A stretch of 53,179 nucleotides of DNA from IMG/VR virus record IMGVR_UViG_3300032053_000105, positions 1-53,179 of that record; one strand, 5' to 3'. A program made the translations under genes and the position numbers. Below, piece by piece: positions 22,737-45,593 of the stretch. The stretch's first letter is position 1. Every line of letters starts with the position of its first letter. This DNA is from a virus. Lineage: Duplodnaviria; Caudoviricetes. The notes below the pieces were generated by a model, which saw only the letters and a list, made by a program, of their open reading frames with translations, was not told the DNA's origin and ran no database searches.

Positions 22737-23313
22737 TTTAAAGGTTAATAAAGATAACCCAAGAATTATTAAAGATGCTAAATTTGAAAAACTTTGTAAT
22801 TCTATAAAATCATTCCCTAAGATGATGGAGTTACGCCCAATTATTGTAGATGAGGATAATATGGTTCTCGGTGGAAACATGCGTCTAAAAGCCTTACAAT
22901 CGCTTGGATATACCGAGATAGAAGATACTTGGGTAAAACAAGCAGTTGGATTGACTGATGAGCAAAAAAAAGAGTTTATTATTAAAGATAATGTAGGATT
23001 TGGTGAATGGGATTGGGATAGTTTGGCCAATAACTGGGAAAATCAAGTTTTAACTGATTGGGGATTAGATTTAAGGGCTTGGAGTGATATTAATGCTTTA
23101 GGAGATGAAGATTTTGGAGAATTTGACGGGGTTATCCAGAATGATGAATATTTTCATTTAAATATTACTTTTAAAATTGAAGAAGAAATGAATAAATTCA
23201 TGGAAACAAATAATATAATTTTAGATAATAATTTTAAAAAAGTTAATAAAACTATATCAATTCATTGGCCGTTAGAAAAAAGAAGGGATATTAAAAATTT
23301 AGAGTTTAAATAA
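22720..23313 (+). CDS. ParB/Srx N-terminal domain protein
   Basis: NKDNPR, RPIIVDE, LGGNMRLKA, IKDN..FGEWD. Confidence 0.88.
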   Translation: MIQLSNLKVNKDNPRIIKDAKFEKLCNSIKSFPKMMELRPIIVDEDNMVLGGNMRLKALQSLGYTEIEDTWVKQAVGLTDEQKKEFIIKDNVGFGEWDWDSLANNWENQVLTDWGLDLRAWSDINALGDEDFGEFDGVIQNDEYFHLNITFKIEEEMNKFMETNNIILDNNFKKVNKTISIHWPLEKRRDIKNLEFK

Positions 23314-24173
23314 TGAAAACTAAATATCCTATTTTTATTCCATCTAAGGATCGTTATAATAATTGTTTAACTCCTAAATATCTGATAAAAGATAATATAG
23401 ATTTTAAGATAGTTGTTGAACCAGTCCAATATAATAAATATGCTGAAAAATTTAATAAAAAATATTTATTAGTATTACCTAGAAATAATATGAAATTATT
23501 AGGATCAAGAAATTGGATTATGGAATACTCTATTAAGCAAGGGGATAAAAGACACTGGCAATTAGATGATAATATTAGGGGATTTAAAAGATTATATAAA
23601 AGTATTCGTATAAGAGTTAATGGATATTACGCTTTAAAATTTGTTGAAGATATAACAGATAATTATAAAAATATTGGTATAAGTGGCATGAATTATGAAA
23701 TGTTTGTTACTCCAAAAACTAAATCAGTAATAGTGGTTAATCATCATATATATAGTTGCTCATTGATTAATAACGAAATCCCTTATAGGTGGAGACTGAT
23801 TTATAATGATGATACTGATTTATGTATTCAAATATTAAAAGGTAATTGGTGCACTTTATATACCAATGTTTTTTCGGCTTGTAAAATAAGGACTATGACC
23901 ATGAAAGGTGGGAATACTGATCAACTATATCAAGATAAAGGTAGATTTAAAATGGCTAAATCATTAGAAATGTTACATCCAGATATAGTAAAAACTAAAT
24001 GGAGATTTGGGAGGCCACAACATGTAGTTAATTGGGAAGTATTTAAACAAAGATTAATTCCAGTAGATAATCCTAAAAAAATAGGTTTAAATAATTATGG
24101 GAAGTTGATTGCAGTAGGAAAAATAAAAAATAAACAATTAAAAGAATTATTAATAAAGGCGAATAATGGATAA
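23313..24173 (+). CDS. TAGT/GREB1-like glycosyltransferase
   Basis: YPIFIPSKDR, IVVEP, WQLDDNI, YSCSLI, NDDTD, KGGNT. Confidence 0.75.
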   Translation: MKTKYPIFIPSKDRYNNCLTPKYLIKDNIDFKIVVEPVQYNKYAEKFNKKYLLVLPRNNMKLLGSRNWIMEYSIKQGDKRHWQLDDNIRGFKRLYKSIRIRVNGYYALKFVEDITDNYKNIGISGMNYEMFVTPKTKSVIVVNHHIYSCSLINNEIPYRWRLIYNDDTDLCIQILKGNWCTLYTNVFSACKIRTMTMKGGNTDQLYQDKGRFKMAKSLEMLHPDIVKTKWRFGRPQHVVNWEVFKQRLIPVDNPKKIGLNNYGKLIAVGKIKNKQLKELLIKANNG

Positions 24174-24543
24174 TGAAACCTCAGAACAGGTTAAAGTTCC
24201 TAATCCAACTGGTAAAGGTGGATTTCAAGACCACCCTGAATTAAGGAATTCTGGTGGGAGACCTAAAAACCAAGAATCATTTGCTTATTGGATTAATTTT
24301 TTTAAGAATCTTAAGGTAAAGAAATTTTTAGAATATGAAACTAAAAAACCAGATAATAAAAGATTTGTAGCAGAAAGTATTGCTTATGCTCGGGTTGCCG
24401 CTGCAAGAACAGATTTAAAAGAATTTAAAGAGATTGCTAATAGGACTGAAGGTATGCCAAAACAAAGTTTAGATTTACAGGGAAATTTAAATGTTAGTAA
24501 TGTTATTAATAAACTAAACAAAGAGATCGATGAAAGCGAGTGA
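24166..24543 (+). CDS. terS: Terminase small subunit (putative)
   Basis: NPTGKGGF..GRPK, RTEGMPKQ; directly before TerL. Confidence 0.75.
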   Translation: MDNETSEQVKVPNPTGKGGFQDHPELRNSGGRPKNQESFAYWINFFKNLKVKKFLEYETKKPDNKRFVAESIAYARVAAARTDLKEFKEIANRTEGMPKQSLDLQGNLNVSNVINKLNKEIDESE

Positions 24544-25855
24544 TTTTGCCAATTTTTTCAAGATTGAGGATAAACCAGTCATACTTTCAAAAGGGCAGAA
24601 CGATATATTCCGAACGATTATTAAAAGAGAACATCCGAGAAACAATGTCATCTGCCCAACCCAATATGGCAAGTCCCTGACGGTAGCACTGGCGGTTACT
24701 TTAAGATTTCTGTTTAGAAACGAAAAATGGGCTTTAATCGCCCCTTCTGAAAAAAAAGCCAAAGTGATAATGAATTATATTATTGAACATTGTTTTGATG
24801 ATCCGTTCTTTTACAATCAACTTGAAATTACCGAACCACTGGAAAGATTAAAAAGAGAAAGAAGCAAATTAAGATTAACAAGTAAATGTGGAGGCGAAGT
24901 ATTTTTGGTAACTGCCGATGCCCGAAACAGACAAGCGGTCAAGAGTTCCTTAATGGGTTTCGGCGCTCAGAATGTTATTGAAGACGAGGCGGCACTTATC
25001 CCCGACGATTTACACTCTACCGTGATGAGAATGTTAGGGGGACATAAAGATAATTTTCTATTAAAGATTTCCAACCCCTGGAATCGGGGACATTTTTTCC
25101 GAAGTTGGCATAACGATAAATATCACAACATTTTTATTGACTATAAGCAAGCAGTTGAAGAAGGCAGATTCAGTCAGGATTTTATTGATGAAATGAAAGG
25201 GGAAGCGTTTTTCAGTATCTTATATGGTTGTAAATTTCCTGAAGCAGACGAAATCGATGCAGAAGGTTGGCGAATTCTTTTAACAGATATTGCGGTTGAA
25301 AATGCTTTTGTTGACGATGCGGAATTCGGCGAGAATAAGAAACTTGGTGTTGATGTTGGTCGGGGTGGAGATTATACGACTTATGTTTTAAGAGATGATA
25401 AATCAATGAAACTTTTAGAAAAAAACCAGAGTAATGATCTGATGGAAATTGTGGGGCGGATAATCCATTATAAAAACGAATTAGGATTAGAAAATAGTAA
25501 TATCTTTGTTGATGATATTGGTGTCGGCGGTGGTGTTTCGGACAGATTAGAGGAACAAGGCTTTGGGATTACGCCAGTTAAAGTAGGAGAAAAAGCTTTG
25601 GATGAAAAGTTTGCTAATAAAAAAGCAGAGAACTACTGGCACTTTAAGGAATGGATTGATAATGGCGGGAAGATTGTTAGGAATAGTGATTGGATGGAAT
25701 TGACACAAGTTAAATATAAAGAAAATTCAAGCGGGAAATTACAGATGGAACCAAAGGAGAGATTATTTAGAAGAGGTGAGCATTCCCCAGATATTGCGGA
25801 AGGTGGAATGTTAACTTTTAGCCAAACAATAGAACCAAGAGTGAGATTTATTTAA
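24530..25855 (+). CDS. terL: Terminase large subunit
   Basis: PTQYGKS, IEDEAA, ISNP, GVDVGRGGD, DDIGVGGG, SPDIAE. Confidence 0.95.
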   Translation: MKASDFANFFKIEDKPVILSKGQNDIFRTIIKREHPRNNVICPTQYGKSLTVALAVTLRFLFRNEKWALIAPSEKKAKVIMNYIIEHCFDDPFFYNQLEITEPLERLKRERSKLRLTSKCGGEVFLVTADARNRQAVKSSLMGFGAQNVIEDEAALIPDDLHSTVMRMLGGHKDNFLLKISNPWNRGHFFRSWHNDKYHNIFIDYKQAVEEGRFSQDFIDEMKGEAFFSILYGCKFPEADEIDAEGWRILLTDIAVENAFVDDAEFGENKKLGVDVGRGGDYTTYVLRDDKSMKLLEKNQSNDLMEIVGRIIHYKNELGLENSNIFVDDIGVGGGVSDRLEEQGFGITPVKVGEKALDEKFANKKAENYWHFKEWIDNGGKIVRNSDWMELTQVKYKENSSGKLQMEPKERLFRRGEHSPDIAEGGMLTFSQTIEPRVRFI

Positions 25856-25860
25856 AGGGC

Positions 25861-25888
25861 TTGACAAAAAAAACCAGTATTCTATAAT
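25861..25888 (+). promoter_or_regulatory. Sigma70-type promoter
   Basis: TTGACA-16nt-TATAAT. Confidence 0.75.
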
Positions 25889-25899
25889 AAAGGATAGAA

Positions 25900-26064
25900 A
25901 TGGACTTTAATGATTATCGGTGTGAAAAATGCGGGCATCTGATTTGCAGAGAACGGATATTTATAGGCAGGATGGAATCGAAATGCCCATCCTGTGGTTG
26001 GATGAATTATTTTGAGAATTATAACTTTGACGAAATATTTAGCGGAGAAGCGATAAAAATTTAA
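25900..26064 (+). CDS. Com-like zinc-ribbon regulator (54 aa, not in track)
   Basis: YRCEKCGHLI...MESKCPSCG; spacing like phage Mu Com; SD AAAGGA. Confidence 0.75.
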   Translation: MDFNDYRCEKCGHLICRERIFIGRMESKCPSCGWMNYFENYNFDEIFSGEAIKI

Positions 26065-26071
26065 AAAACTC

Positions 26072-26126
26072 TTGAGGTCTTGAACCCAACTTGAGGTCTT
26101 TGAACCCACACAAGTTGGGTTTTTTT
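26072..26126 (+). terminator. Intrinsic terminator overlapping tandem TTGAGGTCTT(T)GAACCC motifs
   Basis: AACCCAACTTG/CAAGTTGGGTT stem then T run. Confidence 0.75.
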
Positions 26127-26139
26127 GTTAAAAGGAAAT

Positions 26140-27489
26140 ATGCCAGAAGAAACAGAACGATTTATAAGATTACCGAATCCAAAACATATACAAACTGGAT
26201 GTCAAAATATTCGGACTATTGCGATTAATAAATCAAAAGGCATATCCGGACTCTATTGTATTGATCATAAAAGTATTAAAACATATCTATTTTTAAGAGC
26301 TAAAGGCTGGACGATGGAAACTGCCCGTGAATGGGTAACCAGCCATTCCAAAGGAGTATCGATGGAAAAAGTTAAGACTGAAGAAAAATTAATGAATGAG
26401 TTAGCAGAAAAAATTAAAGATGCTGTTTATACCAAAGCTGTAAAAGAAAAAGATGAAAAGGGTGATAGTGTTTTTGTTGTTTCAAGTGATGTTGAAGACA
26501 GAGAAGGGGAAGTTATCTCAACTGAGGGCTGGAAATTAGAGAATTACAAAGCATATCCAGTCCTTTTATGGTCGCATAACGCAACGGAACCTTTAATTGG
26601 ACACGGGACAAATTTGCGTTATCGAACAATTAATGGAAAGAAAAAATTAACTTTTACGCCAAAGTTTCATCGAAAGAGTGAGCTTTCTCGATTGGTAGCC
26701 GATTTGGTTGATGAGGATTGGATTAGAGGTGTTTCGGTTGGTTTTAAACCGATAGAGAAAGAAGGCAATGTTTATACCAAACAGGAACTTTTGGAAATCA
26801 GTTTAGTTAATGTTCCCGCTAATCAAGACGCTTTAAGATTAGCAATGGCTAAAGGTTACAAAGAAGATACAATCGGCAAGGTAATGGATGTTAAAAAAGC
26901 TAAAGCAATGCAGGAAAAGATTGACAGAAAAGAAAAAGAAGTTGAAGTAACTAAAGAGATTTTAGAGCAAAAGAAAAAAGAAGCAAAAAAAGTTAAAGAA
27001 GATCCAGAAAAAGCGATTGAAGAAGAAAAGGCCGAAAACAAACCAGAAGAAATAAAACCTGAATTTCCGAAAGAATTAAGTGGCGAAGAGACAGAAAAAC
27101 CAAAAGAGAAACCAGATAAAAAGGAAATGGATAATGAACGCATTGATAAAATTGAAACAACTATTGAAAAACTTGCTGAAATCGTTAAGGGTTATAGTGA
27201 AGTTTTTAATCAGAGTAATAATAAGGTACAGGACGAATTTAAAAAGGTTCGATTAGAACTTAAAGGGTTAAATCCAGATGGTGGATTTGATGAAAGATTA
27301 TCAAATATTGAAGATAATTTAGAGAATTTGGCAAAAAGCCTTAGCTCTAATACTCAAGGTAAATCAGAAGGTCGGGCTGATGAAATCGATGAGTCTAATA
27401 AAGAAACTGCTGATAGAGTAAAAATCCTTAAATGTCTAAACAAAGGTATCAAAGCTCTAATCGCAGGTAAAAAAGAATTGAAGGATTAA
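26140..27489 (+). CDS. HK97-type prohead protease with N-terminal extra domain and charged scaffold-like tail
   Basis: DREGEVI, VLLWSHN, VSVGF, LLEISLVNVPAN. Confidence 0.92.
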   Translation: MPEETERFIRLPNPKHIQTGCQNIRTIAINKSKGISGLYCIDHKSIKTYLFLRAKGWTMETAREWVTSHSKGVSMEKVKTEEKLMNELAEKIKDAVYTKAVKEKDEKGDSVFVVSSDVEDREGEVISTEGWKLENYKAYPVLLWSHNATEPLIGHGTNLRYRTINGKKKLTFTPKFHRKSELSRLVADLVDEDWIRGVSVGFKPIEKEGNVYTKQELLEISLVNVPANQDALRLAMAKGYKEDTIGKVMDVKKAKAMQEKIDRKEKEVEVTKEILEQKKKEAKKVKEDPEKAIEEEKAENKPEEIKPEFPKELSGEETEKPKEKPDKKEMDNERIDKIETTIEKLAEIVKGYSEVFNQSNNKVQDEFKKVRLELKGLNPDGGFDERLSNIEDNLENLAKSLSSNTQGKSEGRADEIDESNKETADRVKILKCLNKGIKALIAGKKELKD

Positions 27490-27490
27490 T

Positions 27491-28645
27491 ATGTCCGATA
27501 TAGAAAAAGACGAATTGGATAAAAAAGCAGAAGAGATGACCGAAGGTGAAAAGAAAATCGCTGATTCAATTCAAGATACAATGATGAAGTTAATTGATTT
27601 GAAAGCGGCAGAAAAATCTAAAATGGATTCTGATGTTAAAGCCAAAGAGATTGCTGAAAAGTCTGTTTTAACCAAAGATATGGTTACGACAATGAGTGAT
27701 CAAGATAGAACCGGCGAATTCATTAAAGCCTTAGTTAATGGCGATAAAATTCGCTGTAAAGTTCTATCTGAAGGCACAAATGCTGATGGTGGGTTTCTCG
27801 TTCCCCAAGAGTGGTATAATACCATAATTGCGGATTTGAGAGACCTTTCTTTCTTGGTTAGTAAAGTGACCAGAGTTCCGATGACGACAAACCAGATGGA
27901 TATGGCGCAACTTGCTTCTCAACCCCAGACTTATTGGCAGGGTGAGCAGGCAATTAAAGAGACTTCAACGGCGACCTTCTCGGAAATCTCACTCACTCCT
28001 TACTCTCATGCTGTCATTGTCGTCTTCACAAAACAATTAGTAGCAGATGCTTCGATTGGACTTCCACAAGGAATCATCGACTTTGTTACTAAACTGATTG
28101 TTGAAGAAATGGCGGCTAATGACGACTGGATGATCATGAGAGGTTCAGGTGCGACTCAACCAACAGGTTACGAAACCTATCGAGCGGCTGGAACGATTAC
28201 ATCAGTTGCCACCGGTGCAAATGTAGCCAGTTACACATCAATGGTTGACGCTTGGGCGAGATTAGGTGCAAGGTATCGACAAAAAGCAGTCTGGATTATG
28301 AATAACATTTCATTGAGAAATGTGATGAATATTGTTGATACGACTAATCGACCAATTTTTGTAGCTGATCCAACTGGAAATCTACCTGGCACAGCTCTTG
28401 GCAGACCGATTCTTGAAGCTAATAGTTTACCTAACGGAACTATCTATCTTGCTGACCTTTCAGGTTATTACTGGGGTGTCCGTGAGGGCATTTCCGTAAT
28501 GCAATCTGAAGAAGCCTCTATTACAAGAGGTGTTAGCGAAATCAACTTATTTGAACGCAATATGGTTGCGGTTCGAGTTGAGGAAAGAGTAGATGGCGAG
28601 TTGGGAGATGTTCGTTCTTGTATTGCTGTAACTGGGTTTAATTAA
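27491..28645 (+). CDS. Major capsid protein, HK97 fold
   Basis: GGFLVPQE, AVWIMN, LGRPI, LFERNMVAVRVEERVDG. Confidence 0.95.
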   Translation: MSDIEKDELDKKAEEMTEGEKKIADSIQDTMMKLIDLKAAEKSKMDSDVKAKEIAEKSVLTKDMVTTMSDQDRTGEFIKALVNGDKIRCKVLSEGTNADGGFLVPQEWYNTIIADLRDLSFLVSKVTRVPMTTNQMDMAQLASQPQTYWQGEQAIKETSTATFSEISLTPYSHAVIVVFTKQLVADASIGLPQGIIDFVTKLIVEEMAANDDWMIMRGSGATQPTGYETYRAAGTITSVATGANVASYTSMVDAWARLGARYRQKAVWIMNNISLRNVMNIVDTTNRPIFVADPTGNLPGTALGRPILEANSLPNGTIYLADLSGYYWGVREGISVMQSEEASITRGVSEINLFERNMVAVRVEERVDGELGDVRSCIAVTGFN

Positions 28646-28664
28646 ACCATAACTTTCTGATATA

Positions 28665-28747
28665 CAGCCTCTTCATTTGAGCAAACAAAAATTGCTTATC
28701 CGCTAAGGGCGGTTGAGTGGGGACGGAGACCACACCTCAAGAGGCTG
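28665..28747 (+). ncRNA. Putative structured RNA element after capsid gene
   Basis: CAGCCTCTT/AAGAGGCTG enclosing three small hairpins. Confidence 0.5.
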
Positions 28748-28763
28748 GCATTAGGAGGTAACT

Positions 28764-28943
28764 ATGCAAACAATTATATTTTTAAAAGATGCGGAAGGTT
28801 TTTTAAGGGGCGATGTTAAGATTCTACCAAATAACGATGCCCATCGGCTGGTTTTTAATAGAGCGGCGAAACTTTACAATTATGCTGATAAAATGATGAG
28901 TGCCAAGCAGAGGAAAGGCAAGAAAGGTTATAAAGTCAAATGA
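28764..28943 (+). CDS. Small basic protein resembling the bL9 N-terminal domain (59 aa, not in track)
   Basis: SD AGGAGG; IIFLKD..GF..GDVK. Confidence 0.65.
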   Translation: MQTIIFLKDAEGFLRGDVKILPNNDAHRLVFNRAAKLYNYADKMMSAKQRKGKKGYKVK

Positions 28944-29539
28944 CACTTGTCGCTTATGCTTTGGTAAATCTTGCTGATACGAAAGAAACTCTTGGCATTA
29001 CTGATAATATACAGGATAGTTTGTTGACTAATCTGATTAACCGAGCAACGGATATTATTGAACGATACTGCAATGGAAGAAGATTCGCTTCTACTGTTTA
29101 TACTAACGAGGAATACGACGGTAAGGGTTCGGATTATCTTAATGTAAAACACTACCCAATTACGACCTTAACGAGTATTGATGGACGATCTGGCGACTTC
29201 TCTAACCCGAATTGGAGTTCATTAGATGACGCTCTTTATAAACTGATTGACGATGGCACAAGCGGTCCCGGACAGATTTATTATTCGGGCAGATTTATAA
29301 AGGGTGTAAGGAATTATCGGGTCAGTTATACTGCAGGTTTTGCGACAATACCCAATGATTTACAACAGGCGTGTATTACGCTTATCGCCTTTTTGAAGAA
29401 CCAGACAAAGTCGACTGGAATGAAATCAGAAACACTTGGTAGGTATAGTTATACTAAATCAGACGAGGAAAAAGATATTAAGGAATTAGGTTTAGATGCG
29501 GTTTTGGATTATTACCGAACTCCCGTGATTGGAGGTTAA
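28940..29539 (+). CDS. Head-tail connector/adaptor
   Basis: LADTKETLGI, IERYC, YTAGFATIPNDLQQAC. Confidence 0.88.
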   Translation: MTLVAYALVNLADTKETLGITDNIQDSLLTNLINRATDIIERYCNGRRFASTVYTNEEYDGKGSDYLNVKHYPITTLTSIDGRSGDFSNPNWSSLDDALYKLIDDGTSGPGQIYYSGRFIKGVRNYRVSYTAGFATIPNDLQQACITLIAFLKNQTKSTGMKSETLGRYSYTKSDEEKDIKELGLDAVLDYYRTPVIGG

Positions 29540-29540
29540 A

Positions 29541-29855
29541 ATTTTATACTTTTTAGATCGAACATTTACAATACGACGATTATCAAATATCGACGGCACA
29601 CGCTCAATCTTTTCGGCAACGGGAACAGCGGCAGGTTATCCTTGTTCTTGGCAAGAACCCTCACCTGAGACTTTAGAAGCACAAGGACATGTTCAGAACT
29701 TGTATGAGTGTTATACCGATATTTCCTGCCCGATTAAGGATGGCGATCAGATCGTTCAGGCAGGGATTACTTATGCGGTGAGAGATGTTGAGGTGATGGA
29801 CTTCGGTTCAACCCAATATAAGATGATTATTGCTTCTAAAGGAGATATAGGTTGA
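29541..29855 (+). CDS. Head closure (stopper) protein; probable ATT start
   Basis: Synteny; IKDGDQI; SD GGAGG 5 nt before ATT. Confidence 0.7.
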   Translation: MLYFLDRTFTIRRLSNIDGTRSIFSATGTAAGYPCSWQEPSPETLEAQGHVQNLYECYTDISCPIKDGDQIVQAGITYAVRDVEVMDFGSTQYKMIIASKGDIG

Positions 29856-30223
29856 ATATTACTATCAAGATTAAGAATTTAGATAAGTTTATGCGGGCTT
29901 TAGCAAGATCACCCCAGATTGTTAGTAAATATGCTAATACTGCTATTAGGCAATCTATTTATCAAATTGAAAGGGAAGTAAAACCAAGAACACCGGTTGA
30001 TACAGGTCAATTAAGGAATACTCAAGAATCGAGTTATGGTAATCTAATAGGTAGATATTATCCGACTGTTGAATATGGGATATATGTTGAAATGGGAACT
30101 TACAAAATGGCGGCACAACCCTATTTGAGACCTGGCGTTGAAGCCTCTTTACCAGCGATCACCAAGATATTTGAACAAGAGATAAATAAAGCAATGGACG
30201 AAATAGCGAAAGAGAGCAACTAA
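29852..30223 (+). CDS. HK97 gp10-like neck/tail completion protein
   Basis: PVDTGQLR, YVEMGT, AQPYLRP. Confidence 0.9.
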   Translation: MNITIKIKNLDKFMRALARSPQIVSKYANTAIRQSIYQIEREVKPRTPVDTGQLRNTQESSYGNLIGRYYPTVEYGIYVEMGTYKMAAQPYLRPGVEASLPAITKIFEQEINKAMDEIAKESN

Positions 30224-30687
30224 TGGCAAATAGAACCGAAATTGATGAAATAAAAACAGAAATCCAACACTTAATTGACGATAATATTACGACAGTCCAA
30301 GAAGTCAATAAATACTACAAAACTATTTTTAAAGGTTATCCAGTCGTTAATATCGTCTTTATGGGCGTTGAGAACGAATTCAGAAGCACAGCGGAGAATT
30401 TACGCACTTTTCACTTTCGCTTGCAGATTTTAGAGCAGGTTTCCCAAGTGCCAGACGGGGCAATTGAAGATGTCCAGATGGAAAGGGCAGAAAAGATTAT
30501 TGATGCTGTCGTCTCGGATATGATTGATATCTTTGACCAGAAATATGACAGTTCTGATATGGATAGTACGATCACTTATGGACTTCCCTCTAATACTGAA
30601 CCGAAAATGGTGGTCAAAATGGGAAACGGGGCGTGTTTAATGCAAGAAATAAATATAAGATATACAAAGTTATTTAATGTAACTTAA
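30223..30687 (+). CDS. Tail terminator (putative)
   Basis: Size, acidity, synteny. Confidence 0.65.
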   Translation: MANRTEIDEIKTEIQHLIDDNITTVQEVNKYYKTIFKGYPVVNIVFMGVENEFRSTAENLRTFHFRLQILEQVSQVPDGAIEDVQMERAEKIIDAVVSDMIDIFDQKYDSSDMDSTITYGLPSNTEPKMVVKMGNGACLMQEINIRYTKLFNVT

Positions 30688-30698
30688 AGGAGAAAATT

Positions 30699-31664
30699 AT
30701 GACAAACTATGTGGGTCGACGAGCAACATTAGGGCTGGCGGTTGAAGCAATAAGAGGGACAGCAACTGTGCCAACTTTTTATTTGCCTTACAAATCTCTC
30801 TCAATCGACGATAAAGCGGTGGCAGTAGTCCAAGATACAGCTTTTGGGCAGTTGGGCGATTCGGATGAGACTTATATTACTAAAAAATATGGCGAAGGTG
30901 ATATTGAATTTGATATGGAAGATTTGGCATTAGGAGCGATCCTTTCGGCAGTGATGGGAGCTTCGCCTTCATCAACTGGGCCAACAACTTTCACTCATGC
31001 TTATACTTTGGCAGATACTTCCAATCAACATAAAGCTTTATCACTTCTTATTCAAGATCCAAATGGATCAACCATTTTCCCGATGTCAATGGTAGACACT
31101 TTCGAAATCACGGTTGAGCCAGAAGGATTGGTTAATTGCAAAGTTGGTTTCAGAAGTAGAAAAGGTAAGGATTGGGGAACAGTAACACCAGTTTATACGA
31201 CACTCGGTAATAAATTCCTGCATCAGCATCTTGAATTCAGGGTGGATACGACTATTACTGGTTTGGCAACGATTGGCGAGATTGATTTGCGGGGATTGAC
31301 ACTGACAATCGAGAAAGCCCCAGTTGATTGGGATGATATAGGAACGGTCAGTGCTAATGATATTCTCAACAGACAAATCTCGGTCAGTGGACACATTGAT
31401 TTGGCTTATGGCGATAGGACTTGGAGAGACTATTTCTTAAAAGAAACTGCATTGGCGGTTGAGATATTCTTAAGTAGGGCGACCAATTCCTCGCTAAAAA
31501 TTCAATTGCCGAAAGTGAAATTTCAGAGTTGGGAACCGAGTAAAGATTTAGACGAGATTGCTGTTCAGGGGATTGACTTTAAAGCCCACTACGATGCGGC
31601 TAATGCCCAAAAGATAATTCACCTTTGTAATTTAATAAATACTTATGCTGGTACGAACTATTAA
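30699..31664 (+). CDS. Major tail tube protein
   Basis: Synteny; LAVEAIRG, FTHAYT, KIQLPKVKF. Confidence 0.85.
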   Translation: MTNYVGRRATLGLAVEAIRGTATVPTFYLPYKSLSIDDKAVAVVQDTAFGQLGDSDETYITKKYGEGDIEFDMEDLALGAILSAVMGASPSSTGPTTFTHAYTLADTSNQHKALSLLIQDPNGSTIFPMSMVDTFEITVEPEGLVNCKVGFRSRKGKDWGTVTPVYTTLGNKFLHQHLEFRVDTTITGLATIGEIDLRGLTLTIEKAPVDWDDIGTVSANDILNRQISVSGHIDLAYGDRTWRDYFLKETALAVEIFLSRATNSSLKIQLPKVKFQSWEPSKDLDEIAVQGIDFKAHYDAANAQKIIHLCNLINTYAGTNY

Positions 31665-31681
31665 AATAAAGAAAGGTAAAT

Positions 31682-32023
31682 ATGGAAAGACCAACAAAAG
31701 TGCTGGAAACACCGATTGATAAGCACAAAATTGAGGTCAAATCTTGGGTTTCTGGTGGTGAAATGGAACAGATACAAGGAGTCTGGCTTGAAGGTATGGA
31801 AATGCAAGTCGGCGAAGAAACCCAGCCAAAAGTTAAAGGTTCTCAACTGACAACGGCGAATCATAAATTAATTGAATTATTAGTAGTTAAATTTGATGAT
31901 TCGGCTGACGGGATTTTGGAAAAAGTCTTGGATATGAAAAATGATGATTATCAATTTTTAGTAGCTGAATTAAACACAATAACAAATCCTTCGGCTGAAA
32001 AAAAAATAGCCAAAAAGGATTAG
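31682..32023 (+). CDS. Tail assembly chaperone (gpG-like)
   Basis: Between tube and tape measure; ends at A9 slippery run. Confidence 0.8.
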   Translation: MERPTKVLETPIDKHKIEVKSWVSGGEMEQIQGVWLEGMEMQVGEETQPKVKGSQLTTANHKLIELLVVKFDDSADGILEKVLDMKNDDYQFLVAELNTITNPSAEKKIAKKD

Positions 32024-32181
32024 TTAGTTTATGTCGGGCTTTAAACTGGACATATCAAGATTATATGGATAATCCGAGTTGGTTTAATGAAATGATGTTT
32101 AAATTTTTAATGGAAGAACAGAATGAAATGAAACGACAGGATTCGGCAAATACAAGAACATTAAGGAGTTACCGTGGCTGA
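31998..32181 (+). other. Programmed -1 frameshift site and gpT-like extension
   Basis: A9 at 31998-32006; -1 frame open to TGA 32179-32181 (LCRALNWTYQDYMDNPSWF). Confidence 0.8.
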
Positions 32182-33670
32182 TGTCAGATTACAAGCTATT
32201 TTATCGGCAAGAGATAATACCGGAGGCGCTTTTAAAAGTGCTTCTATGGGTGTGGGAAAATTGGCGGCTGGCGTTGCCTTGGGACAGGCTGCTTATATGG
32301 CATTTAGTAAAGCGGTTAATCTTGCCACTGGTTTTATTAAAAGTTCTATCAAGGCTGGACTGGAAGCGGAAGATGCCCAAGTAAAAATGGCTCATTTGCT
32401 TAAAAATTCTGGCAAGGTTACAAACCAACAGATAAAATCTCTACAAAAGTGGGCAGAAACGATACAATATAAAACTGGCATTGACGATGAATCAATCAAA
32501 AAAGGTATCGGAATGCTGGGAACTTTTAAATTACAATACTCATCGATCAAAAAGTTAGCTCCCGTTATGCTTGATTTAGCAACTGCTTATTCAAATGCAA
32601 CTGGCGAGGAAATGGATTTACAGCACTGGGCAATTATGCTCGGAAAACCAGGAGCTTTACCAGAGCTTGCTACTAATTTAAGACGAATTGGTATTGTTTT
32701 ATCAAAATCCCAAATTGAAATGATGAAGATGGGAAATGAAGAGCAGAGGGTGGCGATTTTAACCAAGGAGTTAAAAGCAGAGTTCGGCGGGTTAGCAGAG
32801 AAAATGGGCAAAACGCCTGCTGGACGATTAAGGATTTTAAATATTGCTTGGGGGGAATTTAAAGAAAAAATAGGTTCAGCACTTATAAAAGGTTTGTATC
32901 CAATGATAACAGCGATGGGAAAATTAGCCCAAGACCCATCATTTCAAAAGAGAATTCAAGATATTGCCACAAAGGTTGGGGAATTAACGACTAAAGCGGT
33001 GAATTGGATTACATCTGTTGCAGTTCCATGGGTAAATAAACACTGGCCTGCAATTAAAACTGCGATTAAAAATGCTTACGATAAATTGGTTAGTTTTATA
33101 AGTAAAGTCCAAGCGTTTATAGATAAATATCCATTTATGGCGACTGCACTTGGAGTAATATCGGCTGCATTATTACTTCTTTCAGCAACAAGAATCCCTA
33201 ATACGATTCTTGCAATAAGTCGATTAATAACAAAAATTGGGTTAATCCCTTCTTTAATCACTATTGGTCTTGTCCTCGCTACTGCTGATTTTTATAAAAC
33301 TTACAATAGGGTAAGAGAGAAATTAAGAACCATACAAGGTCCTTGGTATATTAAGATTATTCCCGCTATGCAAGAAGCCTTCGATCCGAGAAAGGCTGGA
33401 ACTCCTTGGTTTGGTAATATCCCAAGATTGGGTGCATTGGTTGCTGGATTAATAAAAGGAAAACAATCAGGTGGCGTCATTTCTTCTACTGGCCAATATA
33501 TGCTTCATAAAGGCGAAATAGTTAAAGCCCAAGGAACTCATACTGGCGGTGGTGGAGATGTAAATGTTTATATTACTGGCCCATTAAATATGGGTTCAAA
33601 CACCGACATTGACGCTTTTGCTAAAAGACTGGGACGGCAAATTCAACTGGCGAAAGTTGGTGCCCTATGA
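32174..33670 (+). CDS. Tape measure protein (short, 498 aa)
   Basis: LSARDNT start, helical A/G/K-rich, QSGG...MLHKGEIV end. Confidence 0.9.
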   Translation: MADVRLQAILSARDNTGGAFKSASMGVGKLAAGVALGQAAYMAFSKAVNLATGFIKSSIKAGLEAEDAQVKMAHLLKNSGKVTNQQIKSLQKWAETIQYKTGIDDESIKKGIGMLGTFKLQYSSIKKLAPVMLDLATAYSNATGEEMDLQHWAIMLGKPGALPELATNLRRIGIVLSKSQIEMMKMGNEEQRVAILTKELKAEFGGLAEKMGKTPAGRLRILNIAWGEFKEKIGSALIKGLYPMITAMGKLAQDPSFQKRIQDIATKVGELTTKAVNWITSVAVPWVNKHWPAIKTAIKNAYDKLVSFISKVQAFIDKYPFMATALGVISAALLLLSATRIPNTILAISRLITKIGLIPSLITIGLVLATADFYKTYNRVREKLRTIQGPWYIKIIPAMQEAFDPRKAGTPWFGNIPRLGALVAGLIKGKQSGGVISSTGQYMLHKGEIVKAQGTHTGGGGDVNVYITGPLNMGSNTDIDAFAKRLGRQIQLAKVGAL

Positions 33671-34908
33671 TAACCATCACTTTAAATAGTTTAAATATAA
33701 ACTCAGGTAATTACTCGGTTAATACAATCCAACACGACTCGGGGACGCCATTAGAGTTGAACACTTTAGTTTTGGCAAGAGAAGATGGCGAGAAGTTAAT
33801 CTCAACCAGATATAGTGCTAAAAAGTTTACCATTGAAGGTTTGATTAAGGGTGATACTCAACAAGAATTGGAATACCGGCTTGATACTTTCAAAAAGACG
33901 GTTTCTGGTTCGGCTTTAAATCTTGATATTGATTATGGTTATGGCAGAACGAGAAGATATGTGGTGGCGGTTTCTAATATAGCGATTACAAGAGAATTTT
34001 TTAATCTTACTTTTGCTCCTTATAGTTTAGAATTATCAGTTTTAGATCCGCCTTTTGGGCAGGAAACGACAGAAGAGGAAGTTTTTAGTGGTAATGCTTT
34101 TACTTTACCAACTGAAACTTTTTCTTGTGTTTTTTCGGGAACGGCAGAACCGAAACCAGAAATTGAGATGACGATGGATACGGTGGGTGGATTAGGAAAT
34201 ATCGCTCTTAAAAATCAAACTACTGATACTCAAATGGATATTTATACGGCTTGGGCTAATTCTGATATTTTACAAATTGATACTGCTCTTAAAAAAGTTC
34301 AACTCAATAGCCAAGATATTGAATTTGAGGGGATATTTCCTGAATGCGAATTAGGTTTGAATAATTTACTTGTTCAATTCGATGCTGCTACTTCTCTAAA
34401 TCAAACACAAACAGAGTGGACTAATCCTAGTAATAGTTATGCAAGTAAATGGAATGCACAGTCATTTTTAGGAACAGCCGAGACATATAATAGATTGGAT
34501 TTAATTTTATATGCTGGTGATTATTGGGATGATCCAGTGATTAGAATTGAAACTGATAATGGCGGAAAGCCATCAGGGACATTGGTTCACGCTAATGCAA
34601 CCGCCACCCTTTCCAGTTCTGACATTCCGTCTACGCCGAATTGGGTATCAATTAATTTCAATCCTTTTAATTTAACTGCAGCAACTTATTGGATTGTTGT
34701 AAAATCACCAGGGACAACTTCGTTGAGACCTCTCTTATGGGAATTAAAGAATTCGAGTGTCTATGCTGATGGTGTTGCCGCTTATACACTTAATAGTGGA
34801 TCAACTTGGACATCAACCAGTTATGATTTTACATTTAAATTATATCGTCAAGTAACACCAAACTGGTCGATTGATACTAAAGTTAAATATACCCGACGGT
34901 ATTTATAA
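33667..34908 (+). CDS. Distal tail (Dit-like) protein with inserted beta-rich domain
   Basis: Synteny; DPPF, GTAEPKP; insert AQSF...RIETDNGGKPSG. Confidence 0.75.
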   Translation: MITITLNSLNINSGNYSVNTIQHDSGTPLELNTLVLAREDGEKLISTRYSAKKFTIEGLIKGDTQQELEYRLDTFKKTVSGSALNLDIDYGYGRTRRYVVAVSNIAITREFFNLTFAPYSLELSVLDPPFGQETTEEEVFSGNAFTLPTETFSCVFSGTAEPKPEIEMTMDTVGGLGNIALKNQTTDTQMDIYTAWANSDILQIDTALKKVQLNSQDIEFEGIFPECELGLNNLLVQFDAATSLNQTQTEWTNPSNSYASKWNAQSFLGTAETYNRLDLILYAGDYWDDPVIRIETDNGGKPSGTLVHANATATLSSSDIPSTPNWVSINFNPFNLTAATYWIVVKSPGTTSLRPLLWELKNSSVYADGVAAYTLNSGSTWTSTSYDFTFKLYRQVTPNWSIDTKVKYTRRYL

Positions 34909-34917
34909 GGATTAAAT

Positions 34918-36993
34918 ATGGCTAAAACTATTCACAATTGCGATACATATGATGGGAATGGGACTTGGGTTAATTTAGGCGATCCACATATTTTTAATAT
35001 TGCTACTGATAATAATATAAAACAAGAAGGAATTGGATCTGTTAGTTTTGAAATTAATAATGACGGAAGCAGTGAAAGTGCAATAAGTATTAGTGATATG
35101 GTTTCTGTCAATTTATCTAATTATGAAAATACTGGTAAAATCAGATTTTGGCTTTATTTACCCACTCAAGAAATTGCTAATATAATTACGGGGCTTGAAT
35201 ATCCTTGTATATTTGGTTGGGGAAATGATATATCAAATAAATGGTATAAGCATTTTACTACTCAATATAATGGTCAACCATTTATTCAAGGATGGAATTT
35301 GATTGAAATAGATTGGTCTATTGCATCTAAATCTGGTTTGCCCACCAGTAATAATATAACTTTTATGTATATAGTGATTAATTATGATATTAATTTAAAC
35401 GCAGTCGGTTATCGATTAGATTATTTTAGGGTAATTGCCGCCGATGAAAATGAAGATATTGTAGTAACCCAACGATCTAAAAAATATTTTATTAAAATCT
35501 ACAAACCAAATGGCAATTACATCACCACCATTTCTGATGCCTCCTTTGACGGATTTAGAAAACAGATCAACGGTGGATTGGGTGAATTGACTTTTAAATT
35601 GGCAAGAAAGTTTGATGATTTTAATGAGGGAAACGAAATCACTCTAAATAATAAGGTTGAGATTTGGTTATCGGATAGAGACACCGATTCCACTGGTCGC
35701 AAAATATACACAGGCTATATCAGTTCTTATTCGCCTTGGATTGACGGGGAAAATGAAGGTGTGAATGTAACTTGTCTTGGTTATGCGACAAAACTGGCAA
35801 CTTCTATTTACAAGAACGGTTCATCGGTGGAGATAGTTCATACTTCGGTTGATCCTTCTGCAATTATCAAAGATGTTATCACCAGATATCGAGCCGAAAC
35901 AATGAAGGGACAGAAGTATATGCAATCTGGAACTGATTATATTCAAGATACAGGCACGACAGTCAGTTATACTTTCAACTCAAGCACCTTTTTAGATGTT
36001 TTAAGTAAAGCGGTTGAACTTTCACCCGCTGGTTGGTGGTGGTATTTAGACGAGAATGGATATTTGAAGTTTGGCTCAACTCTTGCCATTCCAACTCACC
36101 GATTTACTTTTGGCAGGCATTTTAAAAAAGTGGAAGTAGTTAAAAATATGGAAAACGTGACAAATGATGTTTTATTTATGAGTGCTGATGGCGAGAAAAA
36201 GATTTTCAAACATTATAATAATTCGGATTCAGAAGATCAATACGATGAGAGATTTGAAGTTATTAACGATGGGCGGGTAACGATTGAAGCAACCGCAGAC
36301 GAGATGTCTAATGCGGTTATCAATCAGAAAAAAGACCCAGAAGAAACAACGGTGGTTGAGATAATCGACAATAACGGCAGTGATTTTGGTTATGATATTG
36401 AGTCAATTCAACCCGGCAATACCTGTAAATTTATGGGATTTAACTCAATTACTTCGAAAACTTTTGCTGACGTGATGCTAATTAAAGCGGTTGAATATAA
36501 TCTTAATTCGGTTACTTTGGAACTTGAATCTTTACAAGAACAGATTGCCAGAAAACAGGCAAAGGCAAGCAAAGATTTGCAAGAGCAAGTCAGCCACGAT
36601 TATCCAACTTCTTATCCGAGTGTCAATGTTGCAGATACGATTGGTAGGAAAATAATCTTATTTGATCAAATAGTACAGGTACTTAATCAAACAAATAGAT
36701 CTGATTTAACTTGGACTGATTTAGATCTTTCAAGTTATATTAGTGATCAAGCAAAGGGAATCATTATTGAAGTATTAGCTAATGATACTGGTGGTTATGG
36801 TGCTTATTTAGCAATTAGGAAAAATGGTGATATTTCTGGTGCAAGTTTGGCGGCGAGAACACAAGTGGCCGGCTGGATTCATAATGCGGGTATTATTCCC
36901 TGTGATGCCAATCAGGTGATTGAATATTCAAGAAATGCAACAGGAACAGGGACACTCGATTGTCAAATAAATCTGTTCGGTTATATTGAATAG
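34918..36993 (+). CDS. Baseplate hub/minor tail protein with N- and C-terminal extra domains
   Basis: Synteny; INGGLGELTF, IYTGYI, DIESIQPG. Confidence 0.7.
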   Translation: MAKTIHNCDTYDGNGTWVNLGDPHIFNIATDNNIKQEGIGSVSFEINNDGSSESAISISDMVSVNLSNYENTGKIRFWLYLPTQEIANIITGLEYPCIFGWGNDISNKWYKHFTTQYNGQPFIQGWNLIEIDWSIASKSGLPTSNNITFMYIVINYDINLNAVGYRLDYFRVIAADENEDIVVTQRSKKYFIKIYKPNGNYITTISDASFDGFRKQINGGLGELTFKLARKFDDFNEGNEITLNNKVEIWLSDRDTDSTGRKIYTGYISSYSPWIDGENEGVNVTCLGYATKLATSIYKNGSSVEIVHTSVDPSAIIKDVITRYRAETMKGQKYMQSGTDYIQDTGTTVSYTFNSSTFLDVLSKAVELSPAGWWWYLDENGYLKFGSTLAIPTHRFTFGRHFKKVEVVKNMENVTNDVLFMSADGEKKIFKHYNNSDSEDQYDERFEVINDGRVTIEATADEMSNAVINQKKDPEETTVVEIIDNNGSDFGYDIESIQPGNTCKFMGFNSITSKTFADVMLIKAVEYNLNSVTLELESLQEQIARKQAKASKDLQEQVSHDYPTSYPSVNVADTIGRKIILFDQIVQVLNQTNRSDLTWTDLDLSSYISDQAKGIIIEVLANDTGGYGAYLAIRKNGDISGASLAARTQVAGWIHNAGIIPCDANQVIEYSRNATGTGTLDCQINLFGYIE

Positions 36994-36994
36994 A

Positions 36995-37022
36995 TTGACA
37001 AAAAAAATACAATTTGTATAAT
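36995..37022 (+). promoter_or_regulatory. Sigma70-type promoter
   Basis: TTGACA-16nt-TATAAT with the same A-run as 25861. Confidence 0.75.
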
Positions 37023-37031
37023 ATAATTAAA

Positions 37032-37069
37032 TTGAGGTCTTGAACCCGAATTATGTTCGGGTTCTTTTT
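37032..37069 (+). terminator. Promoter-proximal intrinsic terminator overlapping TTGAGGTCTTGAACCC
   Basis: GAACCCGAA/TTCGGGTTC + TTTTT. Confidence 0.8.
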
Positions 37070-37084
37070 ATGAAAGGACTATTT

Positions 37085-39667
37085 ATGAGTTTTATTGATG
37101 ATTTCTTCACTAAAAGGTTGAAACCGCAATTAAGTAAAGAAATACGGCCAAAGATTGAAAAACAAGTTGAACAGAAATTAGAAAAAAAGTTCTCAAAAAG
37201 TCTCGACAAGTTTGTCCGCAATCTTGATCCATTTTTGAATCGTAAAGATGCTGTTTTACCTGGGAATTGGAAAGTTGTCAATCCAGGTGATTTGGGTTTG
37301 GGAGCAAAAAGCAGTGAATATTTGAAACAATATATGGAGTGGGTCTATGCCAATGCTTCGGCGATTTCAGAAGCGGTAAGTGCGATTGAGTTTCAATTAT
37401 TCAAATATATCGATAGTGGCGATGAAGGGGAAGATGTCGAGGAAATACACGAACATGAACTTTTGGAAATACTTTATAAGGTTAATAACTATACTACAAA
37501 AACAGATTTTATTTATGCGATGCAACTTTATCTTACTCTAACCGGCGAAGCCCCTATCAGATTAAGGATGACTGGTAAAACGATTGATGAGTTGTGGCTT
37601 TTGAACCCTGCTTATTTTAAGGTTTTTGTCGGTAAGGACAATGAGGGTTTTGAAATGATTACAGGATATAAATATTCTGATCCGAGAACGCCAGGTAAAG
37701 ACATTGATTTGAAACCATGGGAAGTAATTTTTATTAAAACTCCCAATCCCGAAAATCAATGGCGAGGAATTGGTGTAATCGAGGCGGCGGCAAGAACGAT
37801 TGATATCTTGAATTATTCCGAGCAATACAATCTGCAATTCTTCAAAAACTCAGCCATTCCATATATTGCTCTTCATACCGACCAGAAGTTAAGTGATGCC
37901 ACCTTTGAACGATTGAAGGAGAATTTTAAGGCTGAACATCAGGGAGTTGATAATGCCTACAAGACTGCCATTTTGGAATCAGGTTTGAAGATTGAACGCT
38001 TACAAACTTCGGCAAAGGATATGGACTTTCTGGAACAGCAAAGATTTATGCGAGATAAATTGATGGCAATGTTTAAAACGACTAAAGTAGTTTTGGGAAT
38101 TACCGAGGATGTCAACCGAGCCAATGCCGAAGCCTCTGAATATGTCTTTATGAAACATTGTGTCAGACCAAAAATGAGAAGAATCTGCGACCAGTTGAAT
38201 GAATTTTTTGTACCGTTATTTGATACTTCTAAGAAATTGTTTCTGGATTTTGAAGACCCGATTACTCAGGATATGACAGAGAAATCTAAAGAATACGCTT
38301 TAGCAGTTGACAAATGGATGACCAAGAACGAGATCAGGCGTGAACTTGATTTGCCCGATATTGATGGCGGTGATGAGATCTGGCAACCTTTGATGCTGGC
38401 GCCAATGGGAGAAAAACCCGAACCGATTATCCAAGAAAAACCAGTTGAAGAAAAACCAACCGAAGAAGAAATTCAAAATCCCGATGAAGAAAAACCAAAA
38501 GAAGAATTACCAAAAACAGAAGAAGGTAAAGTCATTAACTATCGTGTCTTAAAAGTTAAAAATGATCCGAAAAAGAGATTACTTAAAAAATATAAAGAGC
38601 AAATTGCCAGACTCAAAAACAGAAATGTAACCATTAAACAATTAACCAAGAAACTCGAAACCCAAATTAATAAAGTGGCTAAAAGTTATGCGATTAAAAA
38701 ACGGGTAGTGATCGAAAAGAAATATAAAGATTATAAAACTTTTGATACTCAAGAATTCTTCTGGAAAAACCAGATTAAGATGTCTGAGCCTTATGAGAAT
38801 AAGATCAAATCTGAAATTAGATTAAAAATCTATAACGAGCAGAAAATAGATATCTTAAATAAATTACGAAAAGCGGGCAAAGGATTAAAGTTTATTATCC
38901 GAAAACCTCGAAAAGTAGTTGTTAAATCCGCTTCCGATTATATGTATGACAAAGATTTGTATGTTAAAGCGGGAATTGATCTCTTGACGCCAATAATGAA
39001 AGAACTGATCGAGCAACACGGTGAAGAGGCATTAGAACTTTTGGGAAGTGATGTTTCCTACGAGTTATTGAGTGAAGCCCGTAAATACCTCACCAGCGAG
39101 CCTTTGAAGGCCTCAAAAAGCCTAAATAAAACGATCTATGGCAAAGTAAGGAAATCTCTGGCTGATGGTTTGGAAAATGGCGAAGGGATTCCTAAACTCG
39201 CAAAGAGGATTGATAAAGTTTATTCAGGTTTGGAAGCCTATCAACTTAATGCAATTGCCCGCACTGAAACTTCAAGGGCGGTTAATTTTGCGACAGTGGA
39301 TGGTTACCGTCAGTCAGGTGTAGTGAATGGCAAAGAATGGTTGACAGCCTTTGATGAACGCACCTGTGATTGGTGCGAGGAAATGAACGGAAAAGTGATT
39401 GCTCTTGATGAAGATTATTTTAAAGAAGGCGATACAATGAAAGTTGGTAAAGAAAGTTTGGATATATCTTATGAAGATGTTGGAGAACCTCCTTTGCATG
39501 TTTCTTGCCGGTGTACCACTATCCCAGTTATTGGTAAAAGTTTCAAACCAAAGATCAAACGAACTAAAAAAGTTAATCCAAAAGAAAAAGCCAATAAACT
39601 TTTAGAGCAAATTGAAAAGGAGATAAATGGACCAGAAACCGGACAAGGAAAAGCTCAAAAAGTATAG
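37085..39667 (+). CDS. Portal protein fused to Mu gpF/SPP1 gp7-like minor head domain
   Basis: LTGEA, LWLLNP, KDMDFLE, NRANAE, MTKNEIR; then IARTET, KEWL, DERTC, PPLHVSCRC. Confidence 0.93.
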   Translation: MSFIDDFFTKRLKPQLSKEIRPKIEKQVEQKLEKKFSKSLDKFVRNLDPFLNRKDAVLPGNWKVVNPGDLGLGAKSSEYLKQYMEWVYANASAISEAVSAIEFQLFKYIDSGDEGEDVEEIHEHELLEILYKVNNYTTKTDFIYAMQLYLTLTGEAPIRLRMTGKTIDELWLLNPAYFKVFVGKDNEGFEMITGYKYSDPRTPGKDIDLKPWEVIFIKTPNPENQWRGIGVIEAAARTIDILNYSEQYNLQFFKNSAIPYIALHTDQKLSDATFERLKENFKAEHQGVDNAYKTAILESGLKIERLQTSAKDMDFLEQQRFMRDKLMAMFKTTKVVLGITEDVNRANAEASEYVFMKHCVRPKMRRICDQLNEFFVPLFDTSKKLFLDFEDPITQDMTEKSKEYALAVDKWMTKNEIRRELDLPDIDGGDEIWQPLMLAPMGEKPEPIIQEKPVEEKPTEEEIQNPDEEKPKEELPKTEEGKVINYRVLKVKNDPKKRLLKKYKEQIARLKNRNVTIKQLTKKLETQINKVAKSYAIKKRVVIEKKYKDYKTFDTQEFFWKNQIKMSEPYENKIKSEIRLKIYNEQKIDILNKLRKAGKGLKFIIRKPRKVVVKSASDYMYDKDLYVKAGIDLLTPIMKELIEQHGEEALELLGSDVSYELLSEARKYLTSEPLKASKSLNKTIYGKVRKSLADGLENGEGIPKLAKRIDKVYSGLEAYQLNAIARTETSRAVNFATVDGYRQSGVVNGKEWLTAFDERTCDWCEEMNGKVIALDEDYFKEGDTMKVGKESLDISYEDVGEPPLHVSCRCTTIPVIGKSFKPKIKRTKKVNPKEKANKLLEQIEKEINGPETGQGKAQKV

Positions 39668-45431: not shown

Positions 45432-45593
45432 TCCAAAACCCTTGACAAAGACAGACCTTTTGTGTTAGTATATTGTCAAAGAGAGTTTTAGGTCTCTCTG
45501 AATCTAAACCGAAATAGAGTTCCGAGCATAGAAGCCAGAACTCTATTTTTGGTTAAATTCGTGCCTAAAATTAAATTATCTTCCCTAAAACTA

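Follow-up and report, generated by a model that had tools for sequence, protein, structure and literature searches.

The window analysed here is the whole of IMG/VR virus record IMGVR_UViG_3300032053_000105, a siphovirus genome of 53,179 bases that CheckV rates complete. Its G+C content is 36%, and the + strand carries nearly all genes. Of concern are two sites, at each of which a promoter, a short RNA motif and a terminator-like hairpin precede structural genes. At site 1 these features lie 5′ of the head-tail operon, whose first gene encodes the prohead protease and which runs to 36993. At site 2 they lie 5′ of the gene for a portal-MuF fusion. Site 1 also contains com, a small gene whose product resembles the Com protein of phage Mu. 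The features are as follows, with SD standing for the Shine-Dalgarno sequence.

25861..25888, + strand: promoter P1, TTGACA-16-TATAAT, a 12/12 consensus match
25900..26064, + strand: com-like gene encoding a 54-residue CCCC zinc ribbon of the Com family (Pfam, hhalign, alignment)
26072..26087, + strand: motif copy 1, the 16-mer TTGAGGTCTTGAACCC; small hairpin GA-[GGU 26076-78]-CUUGA-[ACC 26084-86]-C
26091..26107, + strand: motif copy 2, 17 nucleotides (one inserted T); small hairpin GA-[GGU]-CUUUGA-[ACC]-C at 26095-26106
26082..26126, + strand: terminator-like hairpin 1, predicted by folding, with a 12-bp stem (core 26085-26119, -13.4 kcal/mol), then T7 at 26120-26126
26131..26142, + strand: SD AAAGGA and ATG (26140) of the prohead protease gene
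36995..37022, + strand: promoter P2, TTGACA-16-TATAAT, a 12/12 consensus match
37032..37047, + strand: motif copy 3, exactly TTGAGGTCTTGAACCC; small hairpin GA-[GGU]-CUUGA-[ACC]-C at 37036-37046
37042..37069, + strand: terminator-like hairpin 2, with a predicted 10-bp stem (37042-37064, -13.3 to -14.5 kcal/mol, z -3.6), then T5 at 37065-37069
37073..37087, + strand: SD AAAGGA and ATG (37085) of the portal-MuF fusion gene

P1 and P2 are the only 12/12 sigma-70 matches (TTGACA-16/18-TATAAT) in the whole window, the next best being 11/12, and they stand 5′ of both structural operons, as the initial annotation of this DNA had claimed. Transcription from P2 is predicted to start a few nucleotides 5′ of motif copy 3. 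The TTG codons annotated as starts, at 26125 (protease) and 37040 (portal), lie in frame upstream of the ATGs given above. At both sites, a predicted intrinsic terminator (about -13 kcal/mol, followed by T7 or T5) separates the promoter from the cargo gene.

The 54-residue protein has the N-terminal CCCC zinc ribbon of the Com family (CxxC, about 17 residues, CxxC), with its cysteines arranged as C8xxC11...C29xxC32. All four are invariant across 21 aligned Com-like proteins, 20 of which match Pfam family PF10122 at E ≤ 0.01. For comparison by hhalign, a classical Com profile was composed of Mu Com and seven com genes, four of which (at loci L076, L089, L091 and L061) were seen here 5′ of methyltransferases. 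The window protein matches this profile with 97.1% probability (E 6.8e-11), and the profile of the window's clade matches it with 98.3% probability (E 1.9e-14). The homologue in a relative, L001 (see below), scores 30.8 bits on PF10122. A PDB sequence search with the clade profile returned nothing below E 0.039. The claim that the open reading frame (ORF) encodes a Com homologue is thus well supported by sequence, and a predicted zinc-ribbon RNA-binding protein is the best explanation of its product.

The motif had been described as a shared word, with two copies near site 1 and one at 37032-37047. The copies are present where they were placed, the second of them as a 17-nucleotide version with an extra T. 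When up to 3 mismatches are allowed, TTGAGGTCTTGAACCC has 3 matches in the window against 0.39 expected, a number reached in 1 of 100 shuffles. As a target, the element is conserved, but what is conserved is a small hairpin and not a linear word. The exact 16-mer is not a widespread element: its 18 matches in IMG/VR, about the number expected by chance, all lie in unrelated sequence lacking a promoter or terminator context. When the intergenic regions are set side by side, the apparent direct repeat resolves into the two strands of the small hairpin, and the target has the architecture 5′-(G/A)A-[3-4 nt]-C-N(2-10)-GA-[complement]-C-3′, where nt stands for nucleotides.

This architecture can be compared with what is published for Com. 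A motif obtained for a Com protein by SELEX (systematic evolution of ligands by exponential enrichment) is given as NGAGNNCC(N)2-3GAGNNCCNN, with CC(N)2-3GAG placed in a hairpin loop beside a translation-inhibition stem (PMC6483171). As a positive control, a structural scan of 1,918 nucleotides of phage Mu yielded two overlapping matches, both at the published 19-mer. The Mu match, GA-AUGC-CUGCGA-GCAU-C, lies immediately beside the CCCAC...GUGGG stem, within which are the SD and GUG start of mom. The window motif and the Mu Com target are built alike, as a short hairpin with a C(N)2-3GA loop beside an inhibitory hairpin.

Of 18 intergenic regions lying 3′ of com (the two window sites and 16 loci, some of which are mutually related), 10 contain the strict form of the motif, against 0.19 ± 0.42 in shuffles, where the maximum was 2 in 1000. 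In the wider family, 10 of 41 com-downstream regions contain it, where shuffles give 1.95 ± 1.34 and none of the 41 upstream control regions has it. The stems of the small hairpins covary between phages, as these pairs indicate:

Window: GGU/ACC
L095: GAAC/GUUC and GGCU/AGCC
L001: GAUC/GAUC
L030: GUC/GAC, twice
L033, L040 and L094: GACU/AGUC

That the motif is also an imperfect palindrome, lying at site 2 10-25 nucleotides 3′ of the -10 hexamer, would suit an element acting as DNA, an inverted repeat GGT-N5-ACC through which a dimeric DNA-binding protein would control P1 and P2. At site 1, however, the motif is 185 nucleotides 3′ of the promoter. Relatives differ in the length of the spacer (5 to 12 nucleotides), and the asymmetric, strand-specific features of the element (5′ GA, loop C..GA, 3′ C) are always on the sense strand. 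The family itself is described as an RNA binder (PMC6483171). We regard DNA-level control as very improbable.

Next to be considered is the relation of the small hairpin to the terminator. The 3′ strand of motif copy 1 lies within the 5′ arm of terminator 1, and motif copy 2 overlaps an alternative, shorter terminator stem (GAACCCA/TGGGTTT), so that at site 1 the two copies together cover both alternative stems. Folding bears out the earlier statement that the motif overlaps the 5′ arm of a terminator-like hairpin, followed by an SD, at both sites. Because of this overlap, the two structures are mutually exclusive. Folding covered the eight sites at which a strict small hairpin occurs together with a terminator, namely the two window sites and those of L095, L001, L030, L033, L040 and L094. 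The free fold is the terminator, reaching up to the U-tract. When the small hairpin or hairpins are enforced, 3-6 basal pairs are lost at all eight sites, and the leftover stem ends 4-7 nucleotides short of the U-tract. The composite signature of small hairpin, overlapping hairpin and T-run occurs exactly three times in the window, always on the + strand, at 26076, 37036 and 45507. Among the + strand hairpin/T-run candidates listed, four are intergenic with at least 5 consecutive T, and three of the four are these composite sites.

A stop codon close to a terminator brings ribosome-mediated attenuation to mind, in which translation of the com ORF, and not its product, would set terminator folding. 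The com stop codon is 7 nucleotides before motif copy 1 and 17 nucleotides before the terminator arm. At site 2, however, there is no ORF between promoter and terminator, and in L035 the com stop codon is about 165 nucleotides before the terminator. Attenuation of this kind seems scarcely credible.

Relatives of the module were sought by several routes. A capsid search found L001, with 44% capsid identity, where the end of the terminase gene is followed by TTGACA-17-TATAAG and a 56-residue CxxC...CxxC ORF; next come a short repeat, a hairpin ending in T7, and the protease gene preceded by an SD. The layout is that of the window, and the sequence is different. A protease-profile scan of IMG/VR gave 11 loci, and a com-like ORF lies directly 5′ of the protease in 7 of the 10 new ones, which represent four distinct phages (L029/L030, L031, L033/L034 and L035/L036). 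The three most distant loci of that scan, with identities of 39% or less, are without a com-like ORF. A metagenome scan gave four loci: L094, L095 and L096 have a com-like ORF, and L093, with the usual portal-protease order, has neither com ORF nor terminator. Finally, a Com-profile scan of IMG/VR (52 loci, 41 distinct proteins) adds L040, L058 and L071, in which the downstream gene encodes an S78 protease. A terminase-based locus search found no relatives, and a scan of genome contigs gave five loci, among which there was no clade member and from which no host could be inferred.

Altogether, com is found directly 5′ of a protease homologue in eleven distinct relatives. The initial annotation had proposed, as a check, a search of related phages for com, motif and terminator together. 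Of the eleven, nine have a hairpin with a T-run, the exceptions being L033, in which the T-run is interrupted, and L058, which has no hairpin; six have the strict small hairpin, with covarying stems. In the window's clade, at both window sites and in the nine relatives, a run of 5-8 T follows the neighbouring hairpin, with the SD 19-35 nucleotides beyond it. The claim that the motif is kept while the stems differ also stands, both within the window, where the 16-mer is identical at the two sites, and beyond it. Distant relatives have this module too, in different sequence, which puts it beyond chance. By sequence comparison, the promoter-com-target-terminator-protease module is real and conserved.

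The same Com-profile scan also placed com-like genes 5′ of DNA methyltransferases (L048, L076, L089 and L091), of a capsid gene (L088, with the com-like gene at 1468-1666) and of a tape-measure-like gene (L068, with the com-like gene at 2489-2676). Another com-like gene precedes a tape-measure-like gene at L099 (2507-2700), in a Clostridiales metagenome-assembled genome, or MAG. In L088, L068 and L099, the predicted hairpins enclose the SD and are without a T-run. On these folds, Com switches on structural genes exist in translational form too. The best locus of the genome-contig scan, L097 (2486-2986), is in a Candidatus Saccharibacteria MAG and encodes a 166-residue protein with an N-terminal Com-like zinc ribbon and a longer C-terminal part, in a context that is not phage-like.

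Might the switch in the window be purely translational, as in Mu? If so, the hairpins would not be regulated terminators, or would be constitutive attenuators, and Com would free the SDs of the protease and portal genes. Translational activation is the only activity established for the family (PMC6483171; PMC3299994). SD-enclosing hairpins without a T-run are found at other Com loci, 5′ of Dam in L076, of the capsid gene in L088 and of methyltransferases in L091 and L048. Moreover, minimum-energy folding pairs the SD to the region of the small hairpin at seven of the eight sites, as in GGUCUU:AAGGAC at window site 2. The position of the SD in the window's clade is not as expected for such a switch, however: it is past the T-run, outside the regulated hairpin, and the U-tract is kept in nine of the eleven relatives. 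At both window sites, the inhibitory hairpin encloses neither SD nor start codon, and only a weak outer helix contacts the SD, at site 2. Enforcing the small hairpins lowers the modelled SD pairing at four of the eight sites and raises it at the other four, both window sites among them, and much the same is seen with shuffled 5′ parts. The modelling thus lends no specific support to SD unmasking in the window, and we consider a purely translational switch unlikely, although translational effects may add a further layer of control.

The mechanism we propose instead is a Com-stabilised antiterminator that gates late genes. The targets of Com would be the small hairpins GA-[3-bp stem]-C-UU-GA-[stem′]-C in nascent late-gene leaders. 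Site 1 has two of them, site 2 has one, and there may be others at 45491-45521. In each, the 3′ strand and the C residues that follow also form the base of the terminator's 5′ arm. Without Com, RNA polymerase that initiates at P1 or P2, both strong sigma-70 promoters, or comes in from the upstream operon would stop at the terminators. With Com bound, the small hairpin would be locked, the terminator would lose its basal pairs beside the U-tract, and transcription would read on into the protease-capsid-tail operon and the portal operon. Motif copy 3 has no adjoining com gene and would therefore be a site of action in trans. Binding of Com to the small hairpins is the part of this proposal that we hold more firmly; termination, read-through and their timing, which the initial annotation cast as a threshold timer, would be its consequences. 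We put the probability that antitermination is the main output at about 0.55.

The timing depends on how com itself is expressed. The -10 hexamer of P1 ends 11 nucleotides from the com ATG. In the core clade, a sigma-70 match of at least 10/12 lies just 5′ of com in nine of nine loci, with the -10 hexamer ending 6-15 nucleotides from the start codon in eight of them. With the -10 hexamer so near the ATG, the 5′ end of P1 RNA would fall on the com start codon or slightly ahead of it, leaving out most of the SD. It may be noted that promoter-derived com mRNA would be leaderless or nearly so, in the window (25889-25899) as in the clade. RNA entering from the terminase operon would include the com SD. 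It had been claimed that com, lying between P1 and its terminator, would be made before read-through; its position is as described, but P1 RNA would carry little or no com SD. The arrangement suggests that most Com is translated from RNA reading through from upstream, after which the protein opens the gates on RNAs started at P1 and P2.

Several observations weigh against antitermination by Com. Promoter and terminator function are assumed, and what the family is known to do, in the sources cited above, is to control translation and not transcription. The window protein scores 22.4 bits on PF10122, i.e., 0.5 bit below the cut-off of 22.9. The small stems in the window are only 3 bp long. Five of the eleven com-protease relatives (L031, L035, L096, L071 and L058) are without the strict motif, and four of these have, by eye, relaxed versions only. 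Across the whole + strand of the window, the generic structural motif is not enriched (7 against 6.9 expected), so that the evidence lies in position, context and the composite signature. The modelled cost of forming the small hairpin instead of the terminator is about 8-15 kcal/mol, which implies that Com would have to act kinetically on nascent RNA. Lastly, no promoter, motif or terminator is present 5′ of the portal gene in any of the three relatives with a portal region (L025, L026 and the contig of the L034 com), where the portal gene directly follows the preceding gene. Site 2 is thus specific to the window's lineage: the action at two loci envisaged earlier is consistent with both window loci, but a two-locus design is not conserved.

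Two of these points, the lineage specificity of site 2 and the lack of genome-wide enrichment, would also fit ordinary operon punctuation, as would the fact that promoter-gene-terminator is a normal monocistronic layout. The hairpins would then end the com unit and the tail operon, with leaky read-through; the motif would be a duplicated cassette, and the zinc ribbon would do something else. The 19-20 nucleotides between T-run and SD, however, leave no room for a promoter, and P2 would yield an RNA of only 40 nucleotides. The 16-mer is identical at both sites although the adjoining stems differ, and relatives repeat the Mu-type target architecture, with stems that covary. Simple punctuation therefore appears quite improbable.

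The module can be set against known systems. It is like Mu Com/mom (PF10122) in having a small N-terminal CCCC zinc ribbon, encoded directly 5′ of the regulated gene, and a hairpin target with 5′ GA, loop C(N)2-3GA and 3′ C, set against a second, inhibitory hairpin. It differs from Mu in that the inhibitory hairpin has a U-tract, lies 5′ of the SD and is terminator-like, whereas that of Mu encloses the SD and GUG start. Here the cargo consists of morphogenesis operons, whereas in Mu it is a DNA-modification enzyme; at least one extra target has no adjoining com gene; and a consensus sigma-70 promoter lies 6-15 nucleotides from the com start. By protein and RNA target, as judged from their sequences, the module is of the Com family, with a predicted terminator replacing the translation-inhibition stem.

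In BglG/SacY/LicT-RAT and HutP systems, an RNA element stabilised by a protein has nucleotides in common with the 5′ arm of a terminator. The proposed antiterminator is like these in logic and unlike them in its unrelated protein fold, its lack of sugar or amino-acid sensing and its phage late-gene setting. In phage λ, the strong late promoter PR′ has the terminator tR′ close behind it, and the late genes are released by a small phage protein, Q, which binds DNA and RNA polymerase and acts processively. The window differs from λ in that no Q-like protein was found, there being no such family among 62 ORFs compared with PHROGs (26 of them also with Pfam), and each terminator has its own RNA target, so that the action of Com would be local.

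For decades, the known role of Com has been to activate translation of a single DNA-modification gene. If antitermination is its output here, the module is a new and very compact phage late-gene switch, made of a 54-residue protein and an 11-nucleotide hairpin. An RNA-binding regulator would then have moved from translational to transcriptional control by swapping the adjacent stem alone, and the module would provide a portable, orthogonal antitermination part. The signature also furnishes an annotation rule by which com-like genes that have been overlooked in uncultured phages, and the targets that go with them, can be recognised. More tentatively, and with somewhat less than even confidence, we suggest that Com zinc ribbons are a general-purpose RNA switch whose output is set by the adjoining hairpin. 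In the window's clade of environmental siphoviruses, where that hairpin would be an intrinsic terminator, the protein would be a master late-gene antiterminator, with the near-leaderless com giving a delay, and its regulon would be small, comprising promoter-proximal gate RNAs at two certain sites and one candidate.

A search of the available literature found no paper on Com-type control of structural genes or of termination. Com-like genes precede Pseudomonas llpA bacteriocins, a tailocin lysis enzyme and a levansucrase, where their role "remains to be explored" (PMC6240691), and they precede FluMu methyltransferases (PMC3299994). The module in the window differs from these loci, for which the accessible parts of the two papers describe neither terminator-type targets nor structural-gene cargo.

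Two further elements in the window were not part of the initial annotation. One, the third composite-signature site, is held with low confidence:

45442..45550, + strand: candidate site 3, with promoter TTGACA-18-TAGTAT (10/12, with TG) and a 75-nucleotide structured leader

Its small hairpin, UA-[AAC]-CGAAAUAGA-[GUU]-C at 45507-45521, overlaps a terminator hairpin at 45515-45545, which is followed by T5. The 75-nucleotide RNA is predicted to form two hairpins (z -3.97) and to end in the terminator. The first of the two contains AGGUCU, as does the main motif. The segment 45442-45550 might serve as a third gate, or encode a small RNA titrating Com.

The other element is a second Com-like zinc ribbon of 60 residues (44858-45040), located in an island of 52-57% G+C within the lysis region. 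Against the Com profile, it reaches 96% probability by hhalign, and it has no PF10122 match. The 3′ end of its gene contains a Mu-type small hairpin, AGUG-CUGGA-CACU-C, at 44986-44998, and beyond it the SD of an Arg/Lys-rich ORF of 16 codons (ATG at 45022) is covered by a CUCCC...GGGAG stem. This protein was considered as the binder of sites 1 and 2 and is disfavoured, as the conserved adjacency of com and target in relatives favours the gene at 25900.

The wider gene order, taken from the PHROGs and Pfam scans, is as follows.

Preceding the large terminase: block of sugar-nucleotide, glycosyltransferase, radical-SAM and methyltransferase genes
24530-25855: large terminase
26140 (ATG) to 36993, + strand: prohead protease, major capsid, connector and tail genes
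37085-39667, + strand: portal-MuF fusion
After the portal-MuF fusion and before the lysis region: 1054-residue protein
44193-44600, within the lysis region: M23 peptidase
From the lysis region to the window end: small genes

No replication genes were recognised in the window, a search of deposited-phage DNA with 24500-28700 gave no match, and Rfam at gathering thresholds gave 0 matches over the whole window. The sequencing runs listed for this DNA are three of DNA, one of which contains at least half of the sampled words, and none of RNA. The segment 2848-24173, about 20 kb, includes sugar-nucleotide enzymes, several glycosyltransferases (among them a TET-associated glycosyltransferase, PF20691, at 23313-24173), radical-SAM proteins, methyltransferases and a ParB-like nuclease. 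This predicted gene set suggests elaborate modification of DNA or of a surface glycan. The portal protein is fused to a Mu-F-like head morphogenesis domain, and its gene is positioned after the tail genes, not beside the terminase, a position shared by the relatives L025, L026 and the L034 contig.

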